Below are positions 443-32,771 of a stretch of 42,728 nt of DNA, one piece after another (the stretch's first letter is position 1; every line of letters begins with the position of its first letter). The translations under genes and the position numbers were made by a program. The stretch covers positions 1 to 42,728 of the forward strand of contig JAUYJH010000121.1 in assembly GCA_030688705.1 (NCBI GenBank), read 5' to 3'. This DNA is from Deltaproteobacteria bacterium. GTDB lineage: Bacteria > UBA10199 > SPLOWO2-01-44-7. The notes under the pieces are model-generated. The model did no database searches. It was not told where the DNA came from and was given only the letters and a program-made list of their open reading frames with translations.

Positions 443-1251
443 AAATAAAACAGCCGGCCTGGATAGCCGCGGCGGCGGGTGTTTTGGCCCTGCTTCTTTC
501 CTTTGGTTATTTTCGTGTCAAAGAGGCACGGCTCAATGCGCTTGAAGATCCGGTGACCGTTGTCGTCGCCAAAAAAGATGTTTTGCAGGCAAGCCGCCTT
601 GATCCATCACAACTGACTCTTATGAAATTCCCACGCCGCTTTGTCCAGCCGGCGGCGGCCCTTTCTCTGGAATCGGTTGCGGGGCAGGTGGCGATGACGC
701 CGATTCTTAAAGGGGAACAGATTGTGATGACCAAACTGCTTCCATTGGGCGAAAAAAGCGGGCTCCAATCCAAAATCCCCTTGGGGATGCGGGCCTTGTC
801 GGTGGAAATGGATGATGTCTCCGGTGTGGCGGGTCTGATCCGCCCCAATAATTTTATTGATCTGTTGGCCACCTTTGAAATGGAAGATTCCACCGAGAAT
901 CTTCAAGTCGGCACCCATACGATCGCCCAAAAAGTTCTGGTTCTGGCCGTCGGCAGAGAAATTCAAAACGGTCTGGACGGAAAAAAACAGAAAGATTCCA
1001 AAAATATGTTCGGCGGCGCTTCCTTTACCGAGTCGCTAACCGGCAACAACAAAAGAACGCTGACTTTGGCGCTGACACCCCAGCAGGCGCAGGAGGTGGA
1101 GTTTGCCAAACAGCAGGGGGTTGTCGCCTTTTCGTTGCGGCCGCAGTGGGAAGAAGAGCCTCTCAATTTGCAGCCGACCACGGCGCTGGATTTAGTTGGG
1201 TTCAAAGGCAGGGCAAAGAGGACGGGGTATCGGGAGTATAGGGGGAAGTAG
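439..1251 (+). CDS. cpaB: Flp pilus assembly protein CpaB/RcpC
   Basis: ATG 439 follows GGGAGAGGAAG. It has an N-terminal TM helix (AWIAAAAGVLALLLSFGYF), then a SAF/RcpC-like region (VTVVVAKKDVLQASRLDPSQL...MTPILKGEQIV). It sits between the tadE-like and secretin genes. Confidence 0.8.
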   Translation: MKIKQPAWIAAAAGVLALLLSFGYFRVKEARLNALEDPVTVVVAKKDVLQASRLDPSQLTLMKFPRRFVQPAAALSLESVAGQVAMTPILKGEQIVMTKLLPLGEKSGLQSKIPLGMRALSVEMDDVSGVAGLIRPNNFIDLLATFEMEDSTENLQVGTHTIAQKVLVLAVGREIQNGLDGKKQKDSKNMFGGASFTESLTGNNKRTLTLALTPQQAQEVEFAKQQGVVAFSLRPQWEEEPLNLQPTTALDLVGFKGRAKRTGYREYRGK

Positions 1252-1345
1252 GACAATGGACAATGGACCAGGGACAATGGACCCACGACAAAAAACAATC
1301 AAAAAGCTTTTAGTCCTTGGTCCTTGGTCCATGGTCCTTGGTCCA
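1251..1345. repeat. Family D heptamer hairpin, copy 1
   Basis: Five tandem heptamers GGACAAT/GGACCAG/GGACCCA (1251-1285) are followed by an A-rich loop, then five inverted heptamers TAGTCCT/TGGTCCT/TGGTCCA (1311-1345). It starts at the last base of the cpaB stop codon. Confidence 0.8.
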
Positions 1346-2779
1346 ATATCATTATTGTTGGCCTCCTTAGCCTTCGCCTCTCCCCTCTCCCCCCAATCCC
1401 TCGCCAAAGGGGAATCATCGGTTATCCAGACCGATTATGAAATCGGCGATGTGGCCATTGCCAATCCCAAAGTGGCCGATTTTATTATTCAGGATGAGAG
1501 AAAATCGCTCTACCTCAACGCCAAGAGCGAAGGGTTCACCACCCTGACTCTTTGGAACAAGGACGGGGAGCTTAAAGATGTCATTCCCGTGACGGTCCAC
1601 AGTGCCAGCTTGAGCGCTATTTTGAGAGAGGCCGAACAATCTTTTGCATCAATCAAATCGATCGATTTTTTGGTGCAAGACGATGTAATCCGCATCGTCG
1701 GCGAGGCCCCTTCTCCTTCTGATTATAAAAGAATCCAATCTTTTGCCGCCAGGTATCCGCAAATTTTGAATGAGGTCATCATGGCCAAGCCGGTTTTGGA
1801 TACCATGACCAGCCGCATTGAAAAAGCGATCGCCATGCCGGGGATCAAAGTCCGCTCGGTCAAGGATCGCGTGGTTTTGGAGGGGGTCGCCTTTAGCCAA
1901 GGGGCCGCAAACAAGGCTTACGAGATTGCCAAACTCTACGATCCCACCGCATTGAATCTTATTGAAATCCGGCAGGGGGACAGAACGCTGGGGAAAGAAG
2001 AGATGGTGCAGATTGATCTCTATTTTATGGAGATTCAAAAATCGGCGCTGCGCACCTTTGGCATCCAATGGGCGCCGGGTTCTTTTCCTGCGGGGGGCGG
2101 AGAAAATCCGTTCGGCGGCGGCGGTGGCGATGCGTCAGGCGGCATCGGTGGGCTGGGACAATCGCTGATCGGTTTTGTGTTGAATCTCGTTCCCAAAATT
2201 CGCTTCATCCGCGAAAAAGGGTTGGGCCGTGTTTTGGAAAACCCGACTATTTTTGTCAAAAGCGGCGACTTGGCCACTTTTTTCAGCGGCGTGCAGGTTC
2301 CCTATTTTGCCCAGCAAAATGTCCAATTCAAAGAGGTGGGGGTCAAGGTGGAGGCCCAGCCGGTTGTTTCCGGAAGCGACGTCGATCTGAAAATGTCGGC
2401 GCAAATTTCCACCCCCTCCGCCCACATCGATGGCGGCATCAATACCCACTCGATCAATACCACCGCGTATATCCCGTCGGGCCAGGCGATGGTGCTCGGG
2501 GGGATTTTAAGCGGCCGGGATGTCAAAACCTATAACCGCGTTCCCAAAGACCTCTCCACCTCATCGGCCCTTTTTACGCTTTTTTTGTCGAAGGATTTTC
2601 AGACCAGCAAAACAGAGCTGGTGGTTTTTGCCCTTCCAAAAATTGTCGCGGCGCAAGCGGATCTCACAAGTCTCAAAGAAGATTGGGCAAAGACGGAAGA
2701 ACAAATGCTCAAAGACCGCTCCATGAAGGAATATCTTGAATACATGAAGAAAAGGAAAAAAATAAATTCTAAACACTAA
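1277..2779 (+). CDS. cpaC: Tad pilus secretin CpaC/RcpA
   Basis: Pilus N-domain-like region (DYEIGDVAIANPKVADFII...LTLWNKDGE) and BON-like segments, then a C-terminal secretin domain (LGRVLENPTIFVKSGDLATFFSGVQVPY, GQAMVLGGIL, ELVVFALPKIV). The ORF is open from 1196. In-frame ATGs at 1256, 1277 and 1331 all lie inside the repeat. 1277 gives the signal-peptide-like N-terminus MDPRQKTIKKLLVLGPWSMVLGPISLLLASLAFA. Confidence 0.85.
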   Translation: MDPRQKTIKKLLVLGPWSMVLGPISLLLASLAFASPLSPQSLAKGESSVIQTDYEIGDVAIANPKVADFIIQDERKSLYLNAKSEGFTTLTLWNKDGELKDVIPVTVHSASLSAILREAEQSFASIKSIDFLVQDDVIRIVGEAPSPSDYKRIQSFAARYPQILNEVIMAKPVLDTMTSRIEKAIAMPGIKVRSVKDRVVLEGVAFSQGAANKAYEIAKLYDPTALNLIEIRQGDRTLGKEEMVQIDLYFMEIQKSALRTFGIQWAPGSFPAGGGENPFGGGGGDASGGIGGLGQSLIGFVLNLVPKIRFIREKGLGRVLENPTIFVKSGDLATFFSGVQVPYFAQQNVQFKEVGVKVEAQPVVSGSDVDLKMSAQISTPSAHIDGGINTHSINTTAYIPSGQAMVLGGILSGRDVKTYNRVPKDLSTSSALFTLFLSKDFQTSKTELVVFALPKIVAAQADLTSLKEDWAKTEEQMLKDRSMKEYLEYMKKRKKINSKH

Positions 2780-3228
2780 ATACTAAACAAATTACAATGA
2801 ATCAAAATAAAAATTCCAAACCCGCTTGTTTCGATCTTGAAAAACGGACACTGCAATTTGCGGAAAATATTATTCAATATACAAAGGTGCTGCCAAAAAC
2901 GCTTTCTAATCTTGAAATTGCAAAACAACTGATCAGATCAGGGGGGTCCGTTGGCGCAAACTACATCGAAGCAAACGAATCGCTGGGCAAAAAGGATTTT
3001 ATGATGAGAATTAAAATTTGCAAAAAAGAATCAAAAGAAAGTCGCTATTGGCTCTGCTTAAGCGAGACTTTTCAGATCAATAAAAAAGAAATGCTGATTC
3101 AAGAGACAAATGAACTGATGAAAATCTTCGGAGCCATTTTAGAAAAATGCAAATAATTCGATTGTTTGGATTTTGGAAATTGAAATTTAGAATTTGTTTA
3201 GAGTTTCGAATTTAGGATTTAGAATTTT
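2764..3228. repeat. Family E AT-rich hairpin element carrying the four-helix-bundle ORF where its inner arm and loop should be
   Basis: The left arm AAATTCTAAACACTAAATACTAAACAAATTACA (2764-2796) is an imperfect inverted repeat of AATTTGTTTAGAGTTTCGAATTTAGGATTTAGAATTTT in the right arm (3157-3228). The right arm is collinear with the right halves of the ORF-less copies at 28303 and 32586. Confidence 0.55.
2797..3156 (+). CDS. Four-helix-bundle protein, 23S rRNA intervening-sequence (IVS) protein family
   Basis: Family-typical sequence: FDLEKRTLQFAENIIQYTKVLPK...EIAKQLIRSGGSVGANYIEANESLGKKDFMMRIKICKKESKESRYWLCL. Confidence 0.9.
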   Translation: MNQNKNSKPACFDLEKRTLQFAENIIQYTKVLPKTLSNLEIAKQLIRSGGSVGANYIEANESLGKKDFMMRIKICKKESKESRYWLCLSETFQINKKEMLIQETNELMKIFGAILEKCK

Positions 3229-3259
3229 GTATTTTTATTTTTAATTTTTCATTTTTATT

Positions 3260-5203
3260 ATGAGTGCGAAAATCATATCCGTAATGGGTGTCAAAGACGG
3301 GGTTGGGGCGTCGGGTTTGGCCAAAGACATCGCCGCGGCCTCCCGCAAAAGGGGGGAGACAGTACTCCTCGTGGATGGTGATGCCGACCATCCCGGTGAT
3401 TTGCGGCTTGTCTGCGGCGATGCCGCCCCGTGGCGCAGCCTCCCTGATCTTTCGCGCCTCTCTTTTGATTCGGACCCTGCGTGGACCCGCGCTTTTTTGA
3501 AAACCGCTTCGGGGTTCAGCGGCCTTGAAATCGCCGCCGCCGGTGAAAATGCCTGGTCGCAGGTGGAGCCGCATCTCCACCGTTTTGATCTGGTGGTCTG
3601 CGATTTGGGCTCCCGGTTTCATTCTCTTGCCGCCTCTTTTTTAAAACAATCGTCCCTTTTTGTTTTGGCGGCCGGCTCCTCGATAACGCACGTGGAGGCC
3701 CTTAAACGCAAAAGCCAAAAACTTTCGATGAGTTTTTTTCCGTTCCAGCGCATCGGCTGGGTGGCCAGAAATTGGGGAAAAGAGGCGTTTTTGAAGACCG
3801 CTGATCTGGAGCAAATCACAAAGATAGCGTGTGTCGGCCAAAAAGGGTCCGATTGCCTTTTGACAATGGACAGGCTCCCCCCCTTGAACGGAGATTTGGC
3901 CCCTTTTCTCCCCGATCGTCTTTTTGGCGAAAAACTTCCCCCTGTTGTGGTGAAGGCGGCGGAAGAACCCGAGGCGCCGCAGACTGTTTCTTTCAGACCG
4001 GAGCTTCTTTCTGCCGTCAAAAAAAGCATGGAGACAAAGGGGCTCAAAGCCGATCAAAACGAGGAGGGATTGCGCGAAAAAGTGAGAATCATTATCCACG
4101 AGGTGCTTCAAGACGCGTCGCTCGATATTCCTTCAGAAACCGACCGCGACGTTTTAACCCGTGAACTTCTTGATGAGCTTTTGGGGCTGGGGCCTCTGGA
4201 AAAACTCCTCTCGCACCCCCATTACAGCGAAATTCTGGTCAACGGCTTGGCGCCGATTTTTGTCGAGGAAAAAGGGCGGCTTCAACCGACCTCTTTTCAA
4301 TTCATCAATCTGGAATCGCTGAACAAGGCGATTGAGAGAATTTTGGCCCCGCTGGGGAGGCGCGTCGATGAGGCCTCTCCGATGGTCGATGCCCGGCTCA
4401 AAGACGGCTCGCGCGTCAACATCATCATTCCGCCTTTGGCCCTGAACGGTCCTGTGGTGAGTATCCGCCGTTTTTCAAAAAATAGTCTCTCCCCCGAAGA
4501 TTGGGTGCGCATGGGGAGCGTCACCGAAGAGATGCTTCAGTTTTTGAAAGAGGGGGTGTTGCGCAAAATGAACATCCTTGTCTCCGGCGGCACCGGTTCG
4601 GGCAAGACGACCCTTTTGAATCTTTTGTCCTCTTTTATTCCCAAAGAAGAGAGGATCATCACCATTGAAGACGCGGCGGAGCTTAAGCTCAACCAGCCCC
4701 ATGTGGTGCGTCTGGAGTCTAGGCCCGCAAACATCGAGGGGAAGGGGATGATCGCCATCCGCGATTTGGTGCGTAACTCCCTAAGAATGCGCCCCGACCG
4801 GATCGTGGTCGGCGAATGCCGCGGGGCAGAGGCGCTCGACATGCTGCAGGCGATGAACACCGGTCACGACGGTTCGCTCACCACCCTGCATGCCAACACG
4901 CCGCGCGATGCCCTTTCTCGTCTTGAAACGCTGGTGATGTTTGCCGGGATGGATCTGCCGTCCAAGGCTATTCGGGAACAGATTGCCTCGGCCATCGACA
5001 TTATCGTGCAGATTGCAAGGGGTGCCGACGGAAGCCGCAAAATTGTTTCCATAGTCAAACTGTCGGGGATGGAAGGGGATGTGTTTACCTTGGAGGAGAT
5101 TTTTGGCGATTGTCATTGCGAGGCCAGCCACGCTTCGCTCGCTGCAGGCTCCGGCCGAAGCAATCTCCCGTGGATTGCTTCGCCCCTTCGGGGCTCGCAA
5201 TGA
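3260..5203 (+). CDS. cpaF: TadZ/CpaE-like ParA-fold domain fused to a TadA/CpaF secretion ATPase
   Basis: The N-terminal ~200 aa have a MinD/ParA fold with the atypical TadZ P-loop (KIISVMGVKDGVGASGLA...VLLVDGDADHPGDL...FDLVVCDLG). The C-terminal part is CpaF: Walker A GGTGSGKTTLLN, Asp box ITIEDAAEL, Walker B DRIVVGECRG, His box GHDGSLTTLHAN. The last 30 codons are encoded by the family A repeat. Confidence 0.85.
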   Translation: MSAKIISVMGVKDGVGASGLAKDIAAASRKRGETVLLVDGDADHPGDLRLVCGDAAPWRSLPDLSRLSFDSDPAWTRAFLKTASGFSGLEIAAAGENAWSQVEPHLHRFDLVVCDLGSRFHSLAASFLKQSSLFVLAAGSSITHVEALKRKSQKLSMSFFPFQRIGWVARNWGKEAFLKTADLEQITKIACVGQKGSDCLLTMDRLPPLNGDLAPFLPDRLFGEKLPPVVVKAAEEPEAPQTVSFRPELLSAVKKSMETKGLKADQNEEGLREKVRIIIHEVLQDASLDIPSETDRDVLTRELLDELLGLGPLEKLLSHPHYSEILVNGLAPIFVEEKGRLQPTSFQFINLESLNKAIERILAPLGRRVDEASPMVDARLKDGSRVNIIIPPLALNGPVVSIRRFSKNSLSPEDWVRMGSVTEEMLQFLKEGVLRKMNILVSGGTGSGKTTLLNLLSSFIPKEERIITIEDAAELKLNQPHVVRLESRPANIEGKGMIAIRDLVRNSLRMRPDRIVVGECRGAEALDMLQAMNTGHDGSLTTLHANTPRDALSRLETLVMFAGMDLPSKAIREQIASAIDIIVQIARGADGSRKIVSIVKLSGMEGDVFTLEEIFGDCHCEASHASLAAGSGRSNLPWIASPLRGSQ

Positions 5204-25058: not shown

Positions 25059-26657
25059 ATGCGATATTTTTTTTCAATTTTCGTTACACTCTTTTTGCTT
25101 TTAGGGGTTTCTTGCGCCCGCCAATCTTCTTCCAAAGTGGAAAGCCTAAAGGATGAAAAAAACCCCTATTATTACTTTGCCCGTTCCAATCTTGAGTCGT
25201 ATGAAGGTATGATCGACGCTTCCATCGCCGATCTCGAAAAAACAGTCAAAAGTTATCCCGACAGCCCCTACCTTCGCACTCTTTTGGCCCAACGCTACGC
25301 ACAAAACAAACAACTGGGAGAGGCCGCCCTGCAGGTGGAAGCCGCGTTAAAGCTGGACCCGAAGAGGGTCGATGCCAAAATTCTTTTGGCGCAAATTCTG
25401 GAATCTCAAGGCGAGATTACCAAAGCAACGGCCCTTTTCAGACAGGTGGTTCGGGAAAAGCCCGAGTGGGAAGAGGGATACTTAAAGCTGGCGCAAAGCC
25501 TTGTTTACGAAAAAAAATTCCACGAGGCGATCCGCGTTTTGGAAAACATGAAGCGGCGTTTTCCCGATTCTTTGTCGGCCGATTACTACAGCGCCACCAT
25601 TTATCAGGCTTATCTGGATCAGCCGGCAAAAGCCCTGGTCTATTTTGAAAATATTCTGAAAGAAGACCCTGAAAATGTGAAGGTGCGCCACCAGACAGCG
25701 CAGATTTATGTCGATCAAAACAGGATGCGCGAAGCGTTGAAGGAACTGCTTCTCATTGAAAAACAGATGCCCGCCGACCTGGGGCTTCAACTGCAAATCG
25801 CCTCGGTTTATCAGGAGTTGGGCGACATGAAGGAGACCATCGCACGGCTTGAAAATATTTTGAAAGCCAACTCCAATGCCGACCGGATTCACTATTATCT
25901 TGGGTTGGTTTTGGAAAAACAGGGAAGAAACGACGAAGCCCTTGCCCATTTTGCCGATGTTCCTCCGGCATCCTCTTTTTTCAAGGACGCAAGACTGCAC
26001 GAGGCCCTGCTTTACCGGGATTTAAAGCAGGAGGAAAATGCCATACGTGTTTTGGAAAAGGCCATCGCCAAAGACCCCAAAATTGCGCAATTCTATCTTC
26101 TTCTTTCGCTGATGGAAGAGGAGAAAAAAAATGACGACAAGGCGTTTGAGATTTTAAAAAAAGGGGTCCGTGCCGTTCCCGGGGACGAACAGCTCTCCTT
26201 CAATCTGGCCACTTTCTATGACCGTCTTGGCAAGAGGGAAGAGGCTCTTAAGCTGATGCGCAAAACGCTGGAGATCAACCCAAAAAACGCTTCCGCCCTG
26301 AATTATATCGGCTATGCGTACGCGGAAGAGGGGAAAAATCTCGATGAGGCGGAAAAGCTGGTTCAAGAGGCGCTTGCCTTGAAGCCCAACGATGGTTTTA
26401 TCGTCGATTCCTTGGGCTGGGTTTATTACCAGAAGGGGGAATATAAAAAATCTCTTGCGACTCTCGAGAGGGCGGCGCGTCTGTTGCCGAAAGAGCCGGT
26501 CATCAACGAACATCTGGGGGATGTCTGGCTGAAATTGGGGAATAAACAAAAGGCCTTAAGCTATTTCAAAAAGTCTTTGGAGTTTGAAAAAGAAAAAGAG
26601 GATGGAAACAGAGAGGATATGGAGCGTGTGGAAGGGAAAATCCGGCAGATACAATAG
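25059..26657 (+). CDS. TPR-repeat lipoprotein
   Basis: Lipobox LLLGVSC, then more than 10 TPR-like units (for example ALNYIGYAYAEEGKNLDEAEKLVQEALALKPNDGFIVDSLGWVYYQKGEYKKS). Confidence 0.8.
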   Translation: MRYFFSIFVTLFLLLGVSCARQSSSKVESLKDEKNPYYYFARSNLESYEGMIDASIADLEKTVKSYPDSPYLRTLLAQRYAQNKQLGEAALQVEAALKLDPKRVDAKILLAQILESQGEITKATALFRQVVREKPEWEEGYLKLAQSLVYEKKFHEAIRVLENMKRRFPDSLSADYYSATIYQAYLDQPAKALVYFENILKEDPENVKVRHQTAQIYVDQNRMREALKELLLIEKQMPADLGLQLQIASVYQELGDMKETIARLENILKANSNADRIHYYLGLVLEKQGRNDEALAHFADVPPASSFFKDARLHEALLYRDLKQEENAIRVLEKAIAKDPKIAQFYLLLSLMEEEKKNDDKAFEILKKGVRAVPGDEQLSFNLATFYDRLGKREEALKLMRKTLEINPKNASALNYIGYAYAEEGKNLDEAEKLVQEALALKPNDGFIVDSLGWVYYQKGEYKKSLATLERAARLLPKEPVINEHLGDVWLKLGNKQKALSYFKKSLEFEKEKEDGNREDMERVEGKIRQIQ

Positions 26658-26750
26658 GACCAAGGACAAAGGACCAAGGACAAAGGACCAAAAGCAAAAG
26701 AATAATTGGTCCATGGTCCATGGTCCATGGTCCATGGTCCTGTTTTTTTT
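26657..26750. repeat. Family D heptamer hairpin, copy 2, followed by T8
   Basis: (GGACCAA/GGACAAA) x5 (26657-26691), a 15-nt loop, TGGTCCA x4 plus TGGTCCT (26707-26741), then G and T8 (26743-26750). It starts at the last base of the TPR gene stop codon and covers the start region of the SBP gene. Confidence 0.85.
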
Positions 26751-28299
26751 GTCCTTTGTCCTTCTTTTATCTTCCTGCACCTTCAAGGTCCCGAAAGATC
26801 CTCACGCCCTTGTCCAGAATCTGCCATCCGATCCGGAAACGCTGAATCCGATTACCTCTTCATCGGCCTACGCCGTCGCGGTTTACGGGTTCATTTACGA
26901 ACAGCTCTTCGAATTGGACAACGAAACGCTCCTGCCAAAACCGGTTTTGGCAAAGCGGTGGGAAATCTCCCCGAACCGGATGCAATATACGTTTTATCTT
27001 CGCGAGGATGTGCGGTGGCAGGATGGCAAACCGCTCACCGCCGATGATGTGATTTATACCTATGAGACCATTCAAAATCCGAAAGTCGATGCCGCTTCCT
27101 TGCGCAACTATTACCGGGATGTTTTGAAGGCCGAAAAACTGGGGCCCCATGCCGTTCGGTTCACCTATCGCAATCCCTACGCCGGCGCCCTTTATACATT
27201 GGGTCTGATGATGGTCCTCCCGAAACATATTTTTGACGACGGGCGCGATTTTAACATCCATCCCGCCAATCGCAAACCTGTGGGGAGCGGCCCTTATGTT
27301 TTTGAGGAATGGAAAACGGGGCAAAGAATTGTGCTCAAACACCATAACAAATATTGGCGCGAGTCTTATCATTTCAAAAAACTGATTTTTAAGATTGTTC
27401 CAAGCGGAGAGACGGCGTTCCAGCTTTTTAAAAAGGGAGACATTGATTTAATAGATATTTCTCCTCTTCAGTGGGCCAGGCAGACGGAGAGCGAGAAATT
27501 TACCCGGAAATTTGTGAAACATCAATATTTCACACCCTTTTCTGCCTATAATTATATCGGTTGGAATGAAAAAAGACCCATCTTTCAGGATAAAAGAGTC
27601 CGTTTGGCGCTGGCCCATCTTGTCGACAGAACGACCATCAATGAAAAATTGCTTTTCGGGCTCTACATGCCGATTACCGGGCCCTATTATCCTTTGGGAG
27701 CCAATTATGACAAGAGTTTGCCGCCTATCGATTATAATTTGGAAAAGGCAAAACAATTGTTGAACGAGGCTGAATGGATTGATCACGACGGCGACGGGAT
27801 TCGCGATAAAAAAGGGGTGCCTCTTCGGTTCACCATGCTTTTTTCAACCGGGGTTCAGTTTTATGAGCAGCTCACCCCCATTTTACAGCAGAATTTTGCG
27901 CGAGCCGGCATTGAACTGGATCTAAGAAGATTAGAGGCGGTGACCCTTTTTAGGCTTTTGGGAGAACATGATTTTGATTGTTATGTGGCCGGGTGGGGTC
28001 GCGGCGCGGGGATTGAAGATCTGTACCAGACATTCCACTCTTCGCAGGCGGCCGGGGGATCCAATTTTGTGAGTTATGCCAATCCGCAAGTCGATCGCCT
28101 TTTGGAAGAGGGGCGGCGTGAATTTGATTCCAAAAAGAGAAGCGTGATTTATCAACAGGTTCATCGTCTTTTGTACGAAGACCAACCATATCTTTTTATG
28201 TTCGCCCGGCCCGAACTTTTGGCGAGAGACAAACGTTTCAAGAATGTTAAGGAATACCCGATTGGGTTGGATATGAGGGAGTGGATGGTGGAAGAATGA
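26713..28299 (+). CDS. ABC transporter substrate-binding lipoprotein, family 5 (Opp/Dpp peptide/nickel type)
   Basis: Lipobox LLLSSC, then LNPITSSSAYAVAVYGFIYEQLFELD...LAKRWEISPNRMQYTFYLREDVRWQDGKPLTADDV, typical of SBP family 5. The start is ATG 26713 or 26734, both inside the repeat. Confidence 0.85.
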   Translation: MVHGPWSMVLFFLSFVLLLSSCTFKVPKDPHALVQNLPSDPETLNPITSSSAYAVAVYGFIYEQLFELDNETLLPKPVLAKRWEISPNRMQYTFYLREDVRWQDGKPLTADDVIYTYETIQNPKVDAASLRNYYRDVLKAEKLGPHAVRFTYRNPYAGALYTLGLMMVLPKHIFDDGRDFNIHPANRKPVGSGPYVFEEWKTGQRIVLKHHNKYWRESYHFKKLIFKIVPSGETAFQLFKKGDIDLIDISPLQWARQTESEKFTRKFVKHQYFTPFSAYNYIGWNEKRPIFQDKRVRLALAHLVDRTTINEKLLFGLYMPITGPYYPLGANYDKSLPPIDYNLEKAKQLLNEAEWIDHDGDGIRDKKGVPLRFTMLFSTGVQFYEQLTPILQQNFARAGIELDLRRLEAVTLFRLLGEHDFDCYVAGWGRGAGIEDLYQTFHSSQAAGGSNFVSYANPQVDRLLEEGRREFDSKKRSVIYQQVHRLLYEDQPYLFMFARPELLARDKRFKNVKEYPIGLDMREWMVEE

Positions 28300-28302
28300 A
28301 TA

Positions 28303-28438
28303 CAAATTCTAAATCCCAAATCCGAAATCCTAAACAAATCCCAAACTTCAAATTCCAATGTTTCAAACAACTGTTTGGAATTTGGAAAATTGGCGTTTGG
28401 GATTTGTTTAGAATTTAGAAATTAGAGTTTAGGATTTT
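28303..28438. repeat. Family E AT-rich long hairpin, ORF-less copy
   Basis: The left arm CAAATTCTAAATCCCAAATCCGAAATCCTAAACAAATCCCAAACTTCAAATTCCAA is imperfectly complementary to the right arm TTGGAATTTGGAAAATTGGCGTTTGGGATTTGTTTAGAATTTAGAAATTAGAGTTTAGGATTTT. It fills the entire gap between the SBP and permease genes. Confidence 0.85.
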
Positions 28439-29443
28439 ATGTTGCTATATATCTTAAAAAGAATCCTGCTGATGGTGCCCACTCTCATTGGCATCATTTT
28501 TATCACTTTTATGGTGATTCGTCTGGCGCCGGGGGATCCCGCGGAAATGAAGCTCCGCAGCGGGGCGGGAGGGATGCTGGCTGATAAATCGGCCGTCTCG
28601 ATTGTGGAAGAGACCCGCAAACTTTACGGCCTGGACAAACCGATCGCGGTGCAATTTGGCATCTGGGTCAAGAGGGTGGCCACGTTCGATTTTGGCGATT
28701 CCTACAAAGACCATCAGCCGGTTTTGGGTAAAATCGCCACGGCCCTTCCGATTACGCTGACCTTGAACATCATCACCATTTTCATCGTTTATCTGGTTTC
28801 GATTCCTTGGGGGATTGTCTCGGCCGTTAAACCGACGGGACTCTTTGATCGTGTCAGTGCGTTGATCTTGTTTGTTTTATACTCTCTCCCCTCGTTTTGG
28901 GTCGCCTTGATGCTGATTATTTTTGTCGCCGGCGGCGATTATCTCAACCTGTTTCCGATCGCCGGATTTATTTCGGATGAAGCCTATCAACTCAATTTTT
29001 TTCAAAAAATGGGAAATGTGGCGTGGCACCTTGTTTTGCCGGTGGTCTGCCTGACCTACGGGAGCTTTTCGTTTCTGGCCCGCTTCAGCCGCGCCACCAT
29101 GCTGGAGGTGATTCATCAAGATTACATCCGCACCGCACGGGCCAAGGGTTTAAGCGAATGGAAGGTCATTGTGAAACACGGGTTTCGCAATGCCTTGATC
29201 CCGCAACTAACTTTATTGGGGACATTATTGCCGGCTTTGCTCGGCGGCTCTGTCATTATCGAGCAGATTTTTGCGATACCCGGCATGGGGCGGCTCGGTT
29301 TTGAGGCGGTGTTAAACCGCGACTATCCTCTGATCATGGGGATTGCCACGATCGACGCCTTTTTGACCCTGATCAGTCTGTTGATCAGCGATCTTTTATA
29401 TGTGGCGGTCGATCCAAGAATTACGTTTGAAGGGAATTTATAA
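28439..29443 (+). CDS. ABC peptide transporter permease (OppB/DppB type)
   Basis: MLLYILKRILLMVPTLIGIIFITFMVIRLAPGDP N-terminus and the EAA-loop region DYIRTARAKGLSEWKVIVKHGFRNALIP. Confidence 0.9.
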   Translation: MLLYILKRILLMVPTLIGIIFITFMVIRLAPGDPAEMKLRSGAGGMLADKSAVSIVEETRKLYGLDKPIAVQFGIWVKRVATFDFGDSYKDHQPVLGKIATALPITLTLNIITIFIVYLVSIPWGIVSAVKPTGLFDRVSALILFVLYSLPSFWVALMLIIFVAGGDYLNLFPIAGFISDEAYQLNFFQKMGNVAWHLVLPVVCLTYGSFSFLARFSRATMLEVIHQDYIRTARAKGLSEWKVIVKHGFRNALIPQLTLLGTLLPALLGGSVIIEQIFAIPGMGRLGFEAVLNRDYPLIMGIATIDAFLTLISLLISDLLYVAVDPRITFEGNL

Positions 29444-32506: not shown

Positions 32507-32577
32507 AATCCTTCCGGCCATTTTGATTGCCTCCATTCCTGCTCTCCCTTTGACAGTACGCTTGGGGTAAGGGGTGG

Positions 32578-32718
32578 GCAAAAAAAATCCTAAATTCGAA
32601 TATCTAAATCCTAAACAAATCCTAAATTCCAAATTTTAATATTCAAACAACGGTTTGAAATTTGTAGTTTGGAAAATTAGAAATTGTTTAGAATTTAGGA
32701 TTTCGTGCTTAGAATTTT
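32578..32718 (-). repeat. Family E AT-rich long hairpin, ORF-less copy, followed on the minus strand by T8 (possible terminator of the radical SAM gene)
   Basis: The arms share the core TCCTAAACAAATCC / GAAATTGTTTAGAATTTAGGA with copies 1 and 2. The A8 run at 32580-32587 becomes U8 immediately 3' of the hairpin on the minus strand, 54 nt downstream of the stop at 32772. Confidence 0.6.
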
Positions 32719-32771
32719 GACCATTCAGGTCAGGCGCTAGCCAATGCCAGGCCACACCCCGCGCCACAAGC

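Follow-up and report, generated by a model that had tools for sequence, protein, structure and literature searches.

Among described systems, the intervening sequences (IVSs) of 23S rRNA genes stand closest to the element considered here. The IVS of Coxiella burnetii, which bears the S23p gene, has a 28-bp stem and tandem heptamers and is excised by RNase III, and its S23p gene is reported to be decaying and untranslated (PMC4990558). Ralph and McClelland proposed in 1993, as cited in PMC4990558, that the IVS is a mobile element whose open reading frame (ORF) serves mobility. In the candidate phyla radiation (CPR), rRNA genes carry 23S_rRNA_IVP ORFs as well as short ORF-less inserts (PMC11270868). 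Our searches of the literature found no description of an IVS-type cassette that is dispersed at operon junctions and accompanied by gene-less miniatures. Here we examine a 119-amino-acid four-helix-bundle gene enclosed by inverted heptamer arrays, termed family E, in the Tad operon of a Deltaproteobacteria bacterium (lineage UBA10199), on a contig of 42,728 nucleotides (JAUYJH010000121.1; hereafter the window). We consider it likely that this locus is the ORF-bearing member of an IVS-type palindromic cassette with miniature derivatives.

Like the ORF-bearing 23S IVSs of Leptospira and C. burnetii (PMC4990558), the unit places a protein of this family in the loop of a stem, has terminal inverted repeats and heptamers by the start codon, and has spread horizontally. 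It differs in lying between protein genes of an operon and not in rRNA. Its arms are about 62 nt long, as opposed to the 28-bp stem of Coxiella, and its gene, judged from substitution rates, is under purifying selection instead of decaying and untranslated. RNase III cutting was demonstrated for the Coxiella IVS (PMC4990558), whereas here it would be expected by analogy. Short ORF-less 23S IVSs (about 100-200 nt; Salmonella, Campylobacter, and the 'short ISs' of CPR, PMC11270868) likewise have a counterpart in helix 45 of a relative, a long hairpin without a gene, but the same hairpin is here dispersed in about 75 copies outside rRNA. The GGGNATC heptamer arrays of Xanthomonas and Nostoc (PMC4692102) likewise consist of 7-nt units, are enriched between co-directional genes and are transcribed. 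The abstract of that paper, however, mentions neither a link to a four-helix-bundle gene nor inverted arrays, and its units are G-rich and are read as quadruplex-forming.

The gene and its arms as one unit

The first-pass annotation, made from the sequence alone, had recognized an IVS-family ORF that interrupts the Tad operon between cpaC and the ATPase gene. Its neighbours and profile matches bear this out: the product matches PF05635 (E 4.8e-15, 56.1 bits, cut-off 33.8), TIGR02436 (72.9 bits, cut-off 24) and the sequence of PDB 2RLD (E 4.5e-12). The inverted repeats said to bracket the ORF are also present, as two arms of about 62 nt (left 2757/2764-2821, right 3164-3227), and GC content drops from about 0.53 to 0.28-0.39 over the element. 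An nhmmer profile built from 16 gene-less copies matches both halves (2763-2858, E 6e-8; 3144-3231, E 1e-11), which are collinear with the gene-less plan. The arms pair in the minimum free energy (MFE) and centroid folds of 2755-3240, with the terminal inverted repeats closing a long stem around the insert as in an IVS.

In three relatives, the cpaC/ATPase junction is an overlapping stop/start (…AAATGA…). This is the case in G001, which belongs to the same genus, and in G003 and G004; cpaC of the relatives ends …KKKK* and overlaps the next ATG. G002 also has no insert at this junction, and its cpaC tail is longer. Because the orthologous junction is a stop/start overlap without insert, comparison of these loci indicates that the unit was inserted between cpaC and tadZ-cpaF. 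The comparison of orthologous Tad operons proposed in the first-pass annotation has thus found junctions lacking the insertion. In G005 this junction is occupied by a four-helix-bundle gene that is related (37% identity) and whose arms consist of AAAAATC units. The Tad operon of G004 has a homologue at another position (50% identity), with E-like arms and an ATG located in the same box.

The best public homologues listed share 61-72% identity and come from genomes named Patescibacteria, Omnitrophota, Nitrospirae, Brocadiia, KSB1, WOR-3 and Euryarchaeota. They are closer than any homologue in the same taxonomic family. Four close homologues that were inspected (69-74% amino-acid identity by pairwise alignment) lie co-directionally in unrelated operons, namely lipopolysaccharide glycosyltransferase, exosortase and hisB/hisH operons, and share with the window element its outer units, core, ATG box and right arm.

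One genome per species was scanned for a pair of exact cores spaced by 383-413 nt. At least 80 loci were returned, in which presence of the gene was judged by a hidden Markov model (HMM) built from 120 homologues. The gene is contained in 39 of these loci, and 41 are chance matches in AT-rich genomes. The gene-bearing species genomes (at least 39) belong to CPR/Patescibacteria, Omnitrophota, Planctomycetota, Bacteroidota, Chloroflexi, WOR-1, WOR-3, Proteobacteria and Lentisphaerae, and include a metagenome-assembled genome of Methanosarcinales. The exact core in the 39 ORF-bearing elements follows from the design of the scan. The same architecture, ATG position included, is found in all 37 of the 39 gene-bearing matches listed that are not ended by a contig edge. 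Also among the matches listed, the downstream neighbour lies on the strand of the gene in 33 of 37 cases (p 1e-6) and the upstream neighbour in 27 of 33. The non-coding arms are about 70% alike between ORF-bearing elements even though synonymous sites are saturated, and therefore the arms are constrained too. This distribution supports the view that the ORF-bearing form is the widespread, conserved one. The unit moves between lineages as a block, arms included. A phage vector was considered and rejected, since a search of IMG/VR with both core patterns gave chance matches only, with no hairpin and no gene.

These data also bear on the idea that the gene landed by chance in a pre-existing hairpin, or that the arms grew in place by heptamer slippage. 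Other elements do nest in E hairpins (on contigs C9, C92 and C168), and a possible remnant of another hairpin family lies on the right flank of the element. Both ideas are nevertheless opposed by the identical architecture, including the ATG position, in at least 39 other genomes, by the fixed number of units and the sharp ends, and by the empty orthologous sites. We treat both as refuted, and either would be an extremely improbable origin for this locus.

The features of the locus are collected in Table 1. The two arms had been described as sharing a core motif. The motif is enriched in the window (9 observed, 3.1 expected, with none of 100 shuffles reaching 9). The left core reads TAAACAAATTA, which is one mismatch away from the motif quoted in the first-pass annotation. 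Similarly, the arms do flank the ORF, but its ATG and first ~8 codons are part of the inner left arm, and the last 5-7 codons of cpaC with the stop lie in the outer left arm. The first unit of the left outer arm (AAAAAAT) is degenerate and overlaps cpaC codons. The ORF stop (3154-3156) is 7 nt 5' of the right inner arm. As read from the sequence, the outer-arm heptamers each carry TAA, and their 7-nt period places stops in all three frames on either strand.

Table 1. Features of the cpaC/ATPase junction and gene-less family E hairpins in the window
Feature	Position	Strand	Remarks
cpaC/rcpA-type secretin gene	1196..2779	+	Pfam Secretin, T2SS-T3SS_pil_N, BON
Last codons of cpaC (…K K I N S K H) and TAA stop	2777-2779 (stop)		Encoded by left outer arm
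Left outer arm	2757..2782		Heptamer units (AAAAAAT) AAATTC TAAACAC TAAATA; from sequence and conservation edge
Left core CTAAACAAAT	2783..2792
Left inner arm, 3' end CCAAAC	2793..2821	+	Holds CAATG box with ORF ATG (2797) and first ~8 codons
Four-helix-bundle gene (PF05635 / TIGR02436), 119 aa	2797..3156	+	Intact, without Shine-Dalgarno sequence
Right inner arm, 5' end GTTTGG	3164..3191		Pairs with left inner arm, hence with start-codon region (MFE and centroid folds)
Right core ATTTGTTTAG	3192..3201
Right outer arm AGTTTCG AATTTAG GATTTAG AATTT	3202..3227
T-rich heptamer run (TTTTTAT/TTTTAAT/TTTTCAT)	3228..3259		Looks like right arm of another hairpin family (AAAAATN units)
tadZ-cpaF fusion ATPase gene	3260..5203	+	Pfam T2SSE and CbiA (CbiA/ParA-like domain); orthologues in five relatives
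Gene-less E hairpin	28299..28442 (also placed at 28295-28447)		Fills gap between substrate-binding and permease genes of ATP-binding cassette (ABC) operon; nhmmer 136 bits; dG -51 kcal/mol, z -8.8
Gene-less E hairpin	32582..32722 (also placed at 32575-32723)		RNA-fold z -6.2/-8.7; younger subgroup, 88-95% identical copies on C166, C86, C176, C14

The element ends at 3227 and not at 3228 as previously placed; the T-rich run that follows appears to belong to a different hairpin family. This run (32 nt long, made of TTTTTNN heptamers and reaching to the ATPase ATG) is similar to the right arm of the cassette that G005 has at this junction, and also to the arms that enclose an E hairpin at C14:3678. 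It may be the remnant of an older hairpin element, which the E cassette at the cpaC/ATPase junction may have entered or displaced. The ATPase gene that follows joins TadZ/CpaE-like and CpaF-like domains in one 647-aa protein, a fusion common to five same-family relatives that match from residue 1-5 on.

Gene-less hairpins at gene junctions and in 23S rRNA

The nhmmer profile from 16 seed copies, when run over the 1.88-Mb assembly, identifies 75 family E loci, comprising 54 full-length gene-less copies and 21 that are partial or split. The two ORF-less copies previously noted in the window are real, and their fold z-scores are given in Table 1. Each arm consists of 26 nt of TAAATYC-like heptamers, CTAAACAAAT and a 29-nt inner segment ending CAAAC, followed by a loop of a few nt and the mirror image. 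When 87 arms of gene-less copies are anchored on the core, the AAA and C positions of the heptamers are 0.9-1.0 conserved, one or two positions per unit are free, and conservation falls sharply 26 nt outside the core. The ~7-nt periodicity claimed for the arms is therefore real and position-specific. Unit number is fixed and the ends are sharp, and the core is nearly invariant in the 54 full copies, in which two of its eight paired columns vary, in 1-5 copies. ORF-bearing and gene-less copies share the four outer units, the invariant core, and inner arms ending CCAAAC/GTTTGG. The approximately 75 gene-less hairpins are the same element minus the gene body, located at gene junctions that are empty in relatives. 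Most likely, they are internal-deletion derivatives that multiplied, although we infer this direction.

Flanking ORFs were called crudely, as the longest ORF of at least 100 aa. By this measure, 72 of 95 flanking ORF ends are within 35 nt of a hairpin. Forty-three hairpins could be classified, with 28 between co-directional genes, 10 between convergent and five between divergent genes. Many downstream start codons directly follow the last ATTT with no Shine-Dalgarno sequence in between. No Rfam family matches E hairpins at gathering score, and a promoter/terminator scan of the hairpins gave weak 9-of-12 promoter-like matches only and no terminator-like site.

The distribution of E hairpins among relatives is patchy. 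They occur in 19 of the 93 genomes of the class, and by BLAST they are abundant in this genome and in G004 and were not found in G001, G002, G003 or G005. The ABC-operon junction filled by the hairpin near position 28.3 kb is empty in G001, G002 and G005, and holds two different palindromic elements in G003 (L070, C19) and G004 (L067, C10). At this one junction, three genera carry palindromic elements that are unrelated to one another, and three others have none. Such elements appear to have stop/start junctions as common landing sites. Conversely, three E-filled sites of G004 and G038 correspond in this genome to one hairpin of family D (arm unit GGACCAW), one empty site and one half hairpin, and the last of these sites may be shared with the relative.

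Miniature inverted-repeat transposable element (MITE)-like palindromic repeats, such as Neisseria Correia, enterobacterial ERIC and RUP/BOX, are ~100-150 nt long, have inverted ends, occur as many co-transcribed copies at junctions and show filled and empty sites. E hairpins are like them in size, inverted ends, copy number and junction sites, being many short non-coding copies with sharp termini that are present or absent at orthologous sites. They are unlike them in that no target duplication is seen, the arms are built of 7-nt units, and the full-length partner with the same ends encodes the 119-aa four-helix-bundle protein and not a transposase.

The location of these hairpins raises the alternative that they are host-serving intercistronic elements that set mRNA stability, processing or translational coupling, and that the gene is a passenger in one copy. 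This would fit the 28 of 43 classified hairpins that lie inside co-directional pairs and abut stop and start codons, often with no Shine-Dalgarno sequence before the ATG. It would also fit the conservation of motif positions in old copies, and co-transcribed palindromic repeats such as Correia, ERIC and REP have comparable roles. However, the same junctions work in sister genomes that have no insert there and in other genomes that carry unrelated palindromes, and no E hairpin was found in the same-genus genome G001. Moreover, the gene is the conserved centre of the unit in at least 39 genomes and not a one-copy passenger. This host-serving reading is quite improbable in our estimation.

For the IVS-type cassette that we favour, kinship with IVSs is supported by a 23S rRNA gene of the same class. 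In G025, an E-type hairpin of ~160 nt (nhmmer 63 bits) is present in 23S rRNA, inserted into the terminal loop of helix 45 (large subunit (LSU) rRNA model positions 1206-1226), where IVSs are classically found. No E-type insert is present in the 23S genes of G004, G038 and G046, and the window element is not inside a 23S rRNA gene (helix 25 or 45). This genome has a gene for RNase III.

Several related observations concern these rRNA loci. The 23S gene of G004 (L080, C14:49952-53661) has two inserts of 340 and 396 nt, one of which matches the group I intron family RF00028, and both hold small AT-rich heptamer hairpins, including AAAAATC-type units. Just downstream of the G025 23S gene with the E-type IVS are two divergent PF05635 genes (L078, C3:919080-919787), and several of the 19 PF05635 matches in G025 form such divergent pairs.

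Several E copies are split by other MITE-like elements. One such family, bounded by GGGCACCTCTAAAAAC…GTTTTTAGAGGTGCCC and with a GTCATTCTGAGC-type palindrome inside, is nested in E hairpins at C9:5035-5414, C168:11965-12247 and C92:22741-22994; it is also found at C64:8600-8640. In G030 (C40), the same family interrupts the four-helix-bundle gene itself, with TA on both sides. The youngest E copies (C146:32575, C166:6782, C176:21719, C86:2216) share the flanks …GACCTGAATGGTC… and …ATTCAGCGGAAAAATCC…, and it seems that a larger composite repeat was duplicated there, not the hairpin alone. Family D hairpins are inverted GGACCAW heptamer/octamer arrays (window 1251-1345 and 26657-26750; C102:519-919, C119:14464-15116), and some D arrays extend into coding sequence, such as the N-terminus of a GrpE-like ORF and signal-peptide-like starts.

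The protein and the conservation of the arms

The AlphaFold2 model of the protein (pLDDT 91.8) has four helices at residues 14-30, 36-60, 65-88 and 94-118, and the arm-encoded residues 1-10 are disordered. The closest solved fold is 2RLD (template modelling (TM) score 0.76-0.83), followed by 2GSC (TM 0.75-0.79), and each was matched as five chains (A-E). Compared with the four close homologues, dN is ~0.2 and pS 0.8-0.9, with synonymous sites saturated, which indicates purifying selection on the protein. Avd, the accessory protein of diversity-generating retroelements (DGRs), has the same fold (PDB 4DWL, 8UB7; TM 0.67-0.69, root-mean-square deviation 2.3-2.4 Å), but shares 12% sequence identity, and the ORF here adjoins secretin and ATPase genes. 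As for an Avd-like role, there is no adjoining reverse transcriptase, although the rest of the window was not searched for one or for template/variable repeats; a repeat scan of 2700-3300 gave no template/variable-type repeat pair.

This genome has seven PF05635 genes. It is literally true that the other six lack the E arms, an observation that the first-pass annotation would have held against a link between arms and gene. However, each of the six has its own inverted short-unit arrays, and the E arms track the ORF subfamily across phyla. Four of the seven genes directly follow tRNA genes. Those on C44 (C44:14985-15130) and C131 stand after a complete CCATTTTC/GAAAATGG hairpin, not inside it, and gene-less CCATTTTC/GAAAATGG hairpins (C38:2480-2720) are located in a cluster of RNA-gene-like sequences. 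Family D units form the arms of the gene on C65 (C65:1512-1951). The copies on C7 (C7:27-712) and C104 (C104:308-731) look broken or truncated.

The stem averages about -43 kcal/mol, and several comparisons weigh against its being maintained purely as a structure. Because heptamers slip in register, RNAalifold on a MAFFT alignment of 54 copies gave only the 8-bp core, and a core-anchored comparison was used instead. In gene-less copies, complementarity between a copy's own arms is 0.727, as compared with 0.749 between arms of different copies. The corresponding values for ORF-bearing elements from 38 genomes are 0.701 and 0.695 (permutation p 0.25). Neither set exhibits compensatory covariation between the arms. 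Fold stability has no sense-strand bias (16/28, p 0.68), and G·U pairs show no sense-strand excess (13 vs 19). Given that there is no pair-level covariation and no strand bias, selection seems to target arm sequence and not individual pairs. It appears to keep each arm in 7-nt phase, with pairing as a consequence of inverted copies of one motif. Recognition by a factor would suit this conservation better than a stem kept for its RNA structure alone, though the stem can still form.

What might this factor be? One tentative proposal is a self-recognizing system, in which the protein, probably oligomeric as Avd and its own crystallized relatives are, would recognize the 7-nt motif, whether as DNA or RNA, both in the arms around its gene and in the gene-less hairpins. 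In that role it would act in trans, and could mobilize the hairpins or control processing and translation at the ~75 junctions. The highly conserved AAA and C heptamer positions with one or two free, and the lack of pair-level covariation, are compatible with this, as are the five-chain matches of 2RLD and 2GSC and the fold shared with Avd, which acts in a DGR ribonucleoprotein. In three arm families of this genome (E, D and CCATTTTC), hairpins without a gene coexist with arms that adjoin a four-helix-bundle gene. Among the scan matches listed, which come from other phyla, gene-less copies are found within 8 kb of the ORF-bearing copy at 6 of 39 loci, compared with 1 of 41 control loci (p 0.054).

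As the protein diverges, the unit sequence of the two arms also shifts jointly. Inverted arrays, built of other units, accompany all of the more distant homologues (33-61% identity). The 61%-identity homologue has the unit GAAATYC and a core that is changed in both arms, to CGAAACAAAT/ATTTGTTTCG, and the units are ACAAATT at 58%, AAATCCA at 40% and AAAAATC at 37% protein identity. However, concerted divergence is equally expected from common descent, and there are hairpin-rich genomes that carry no close homologue. That the protein is an oligomeric nucleic-acid binder which drives or licenses the spread and RNA processing of cassette and miniatures, and that this is the function of the '23S IVS protein' family, is a rather unlikely extension of the cassette interpretation.

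Mobility, expression and significance

The cassette interpretation includes movement of the unit, and the following observations weigh against it in whole or in part. No target-site duplication is visible in 48 aligned copies, and the genomes that supply the empty sites have diverged too far for 2-4 nt to be resolved. No mobility enzyme was identified, and neither Pfam, TIGR02436 nor fold comparison reveals a known catalytic motif or recognizable catalytic domain in the 119-aa protein, which speaks against mobility by an enzyme of its own. Most gene-less copies are old (median pairwise identity 0.73, with a small subgroup at 88-95%). The assembly contains no LSU/23S rRNA gene. It is also doubtful whether the gene-less copies depend on the gene. 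Among the class genomes, three of the five that have an ORF homologue with 47% identity or more contain hairpins, as do 15 of the 87 that lack such a homologue (Fisher p 0.05, with kin not independent), which makes the association across the class weak, and hairpin-rich G046, G044 and G056 have no close homologue. When gene-less copies are compared with resident and foreign ORF-bearing arms, the arms are too short and alike to discriminate between sources.

The first-pass annotation suggested that the ORF-bearing and ORF-less copies relate like an autonomous element and its miniatures. The family relationship holds, on the basis of the shared units, core and inner arms. The term 'autonomous' goes beyond the evidence, considering that the ORF is not a recognizable transposase, no target duplication is seen and some hairpin-rich genomes are without the ORF. 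A RAYT/Y1 transposase as mobilizer was rejected, because the seven Y1_Tnp matches have no E hairpin nearby, with the exception of one truncated gene on C36. There (C36:153-780), a 5'-truncated Y1-transposase-like gene starts where the right arm of an E hairpin is cut off, and one element has truncated the other.

Since the cassette is oriented with its host operon, host transcription presumably drives its expression. Its arms would fold, within the operon RNA, into a long imperfect stem that hides the start codon of the gene. By analogy with rRNA IVSs, this stem is a likely RNase III substrate, and cleavage would sever the polycistronic transcript at this junction and set free the RNA of the four-helix-bundle gene. 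The TAA-bearing heptamers would end any upstream host frame within ~20 nt. Perhaps a ribosome that terminates in the arm opens the stem, which would permit re-initiation at the ATG that lacks a Shine-Dalgarno sequence.

The lineage of this locus exhibits three forms together, which are the gene-bearing operon cassette, some 75 gene-less miniatures at junctions, and a gene-less copy in 23S helix 45 of a relative. Three things are new here. One arm family is conserved together with its gene subfamily in different phyla, the same genome has a large family of miniatures for which filled and empty sites are seen, and the same hairpin is present in 23S helix 45. With defined sequences in hand, it becomes testable whether IVSs are mobile elements, whether the ORF is needed for mobility, and whether the RNA matters more than the protein. 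For annotation, it matters that host genes in small uncultured genomes take stop codons, C-terminal tails and the contexts of start codons from these hairpins. If the protein does drive their spread, the family would represent a new class of mobile element that colonizes rRNA helices and operon junctions without a conventional transposase.

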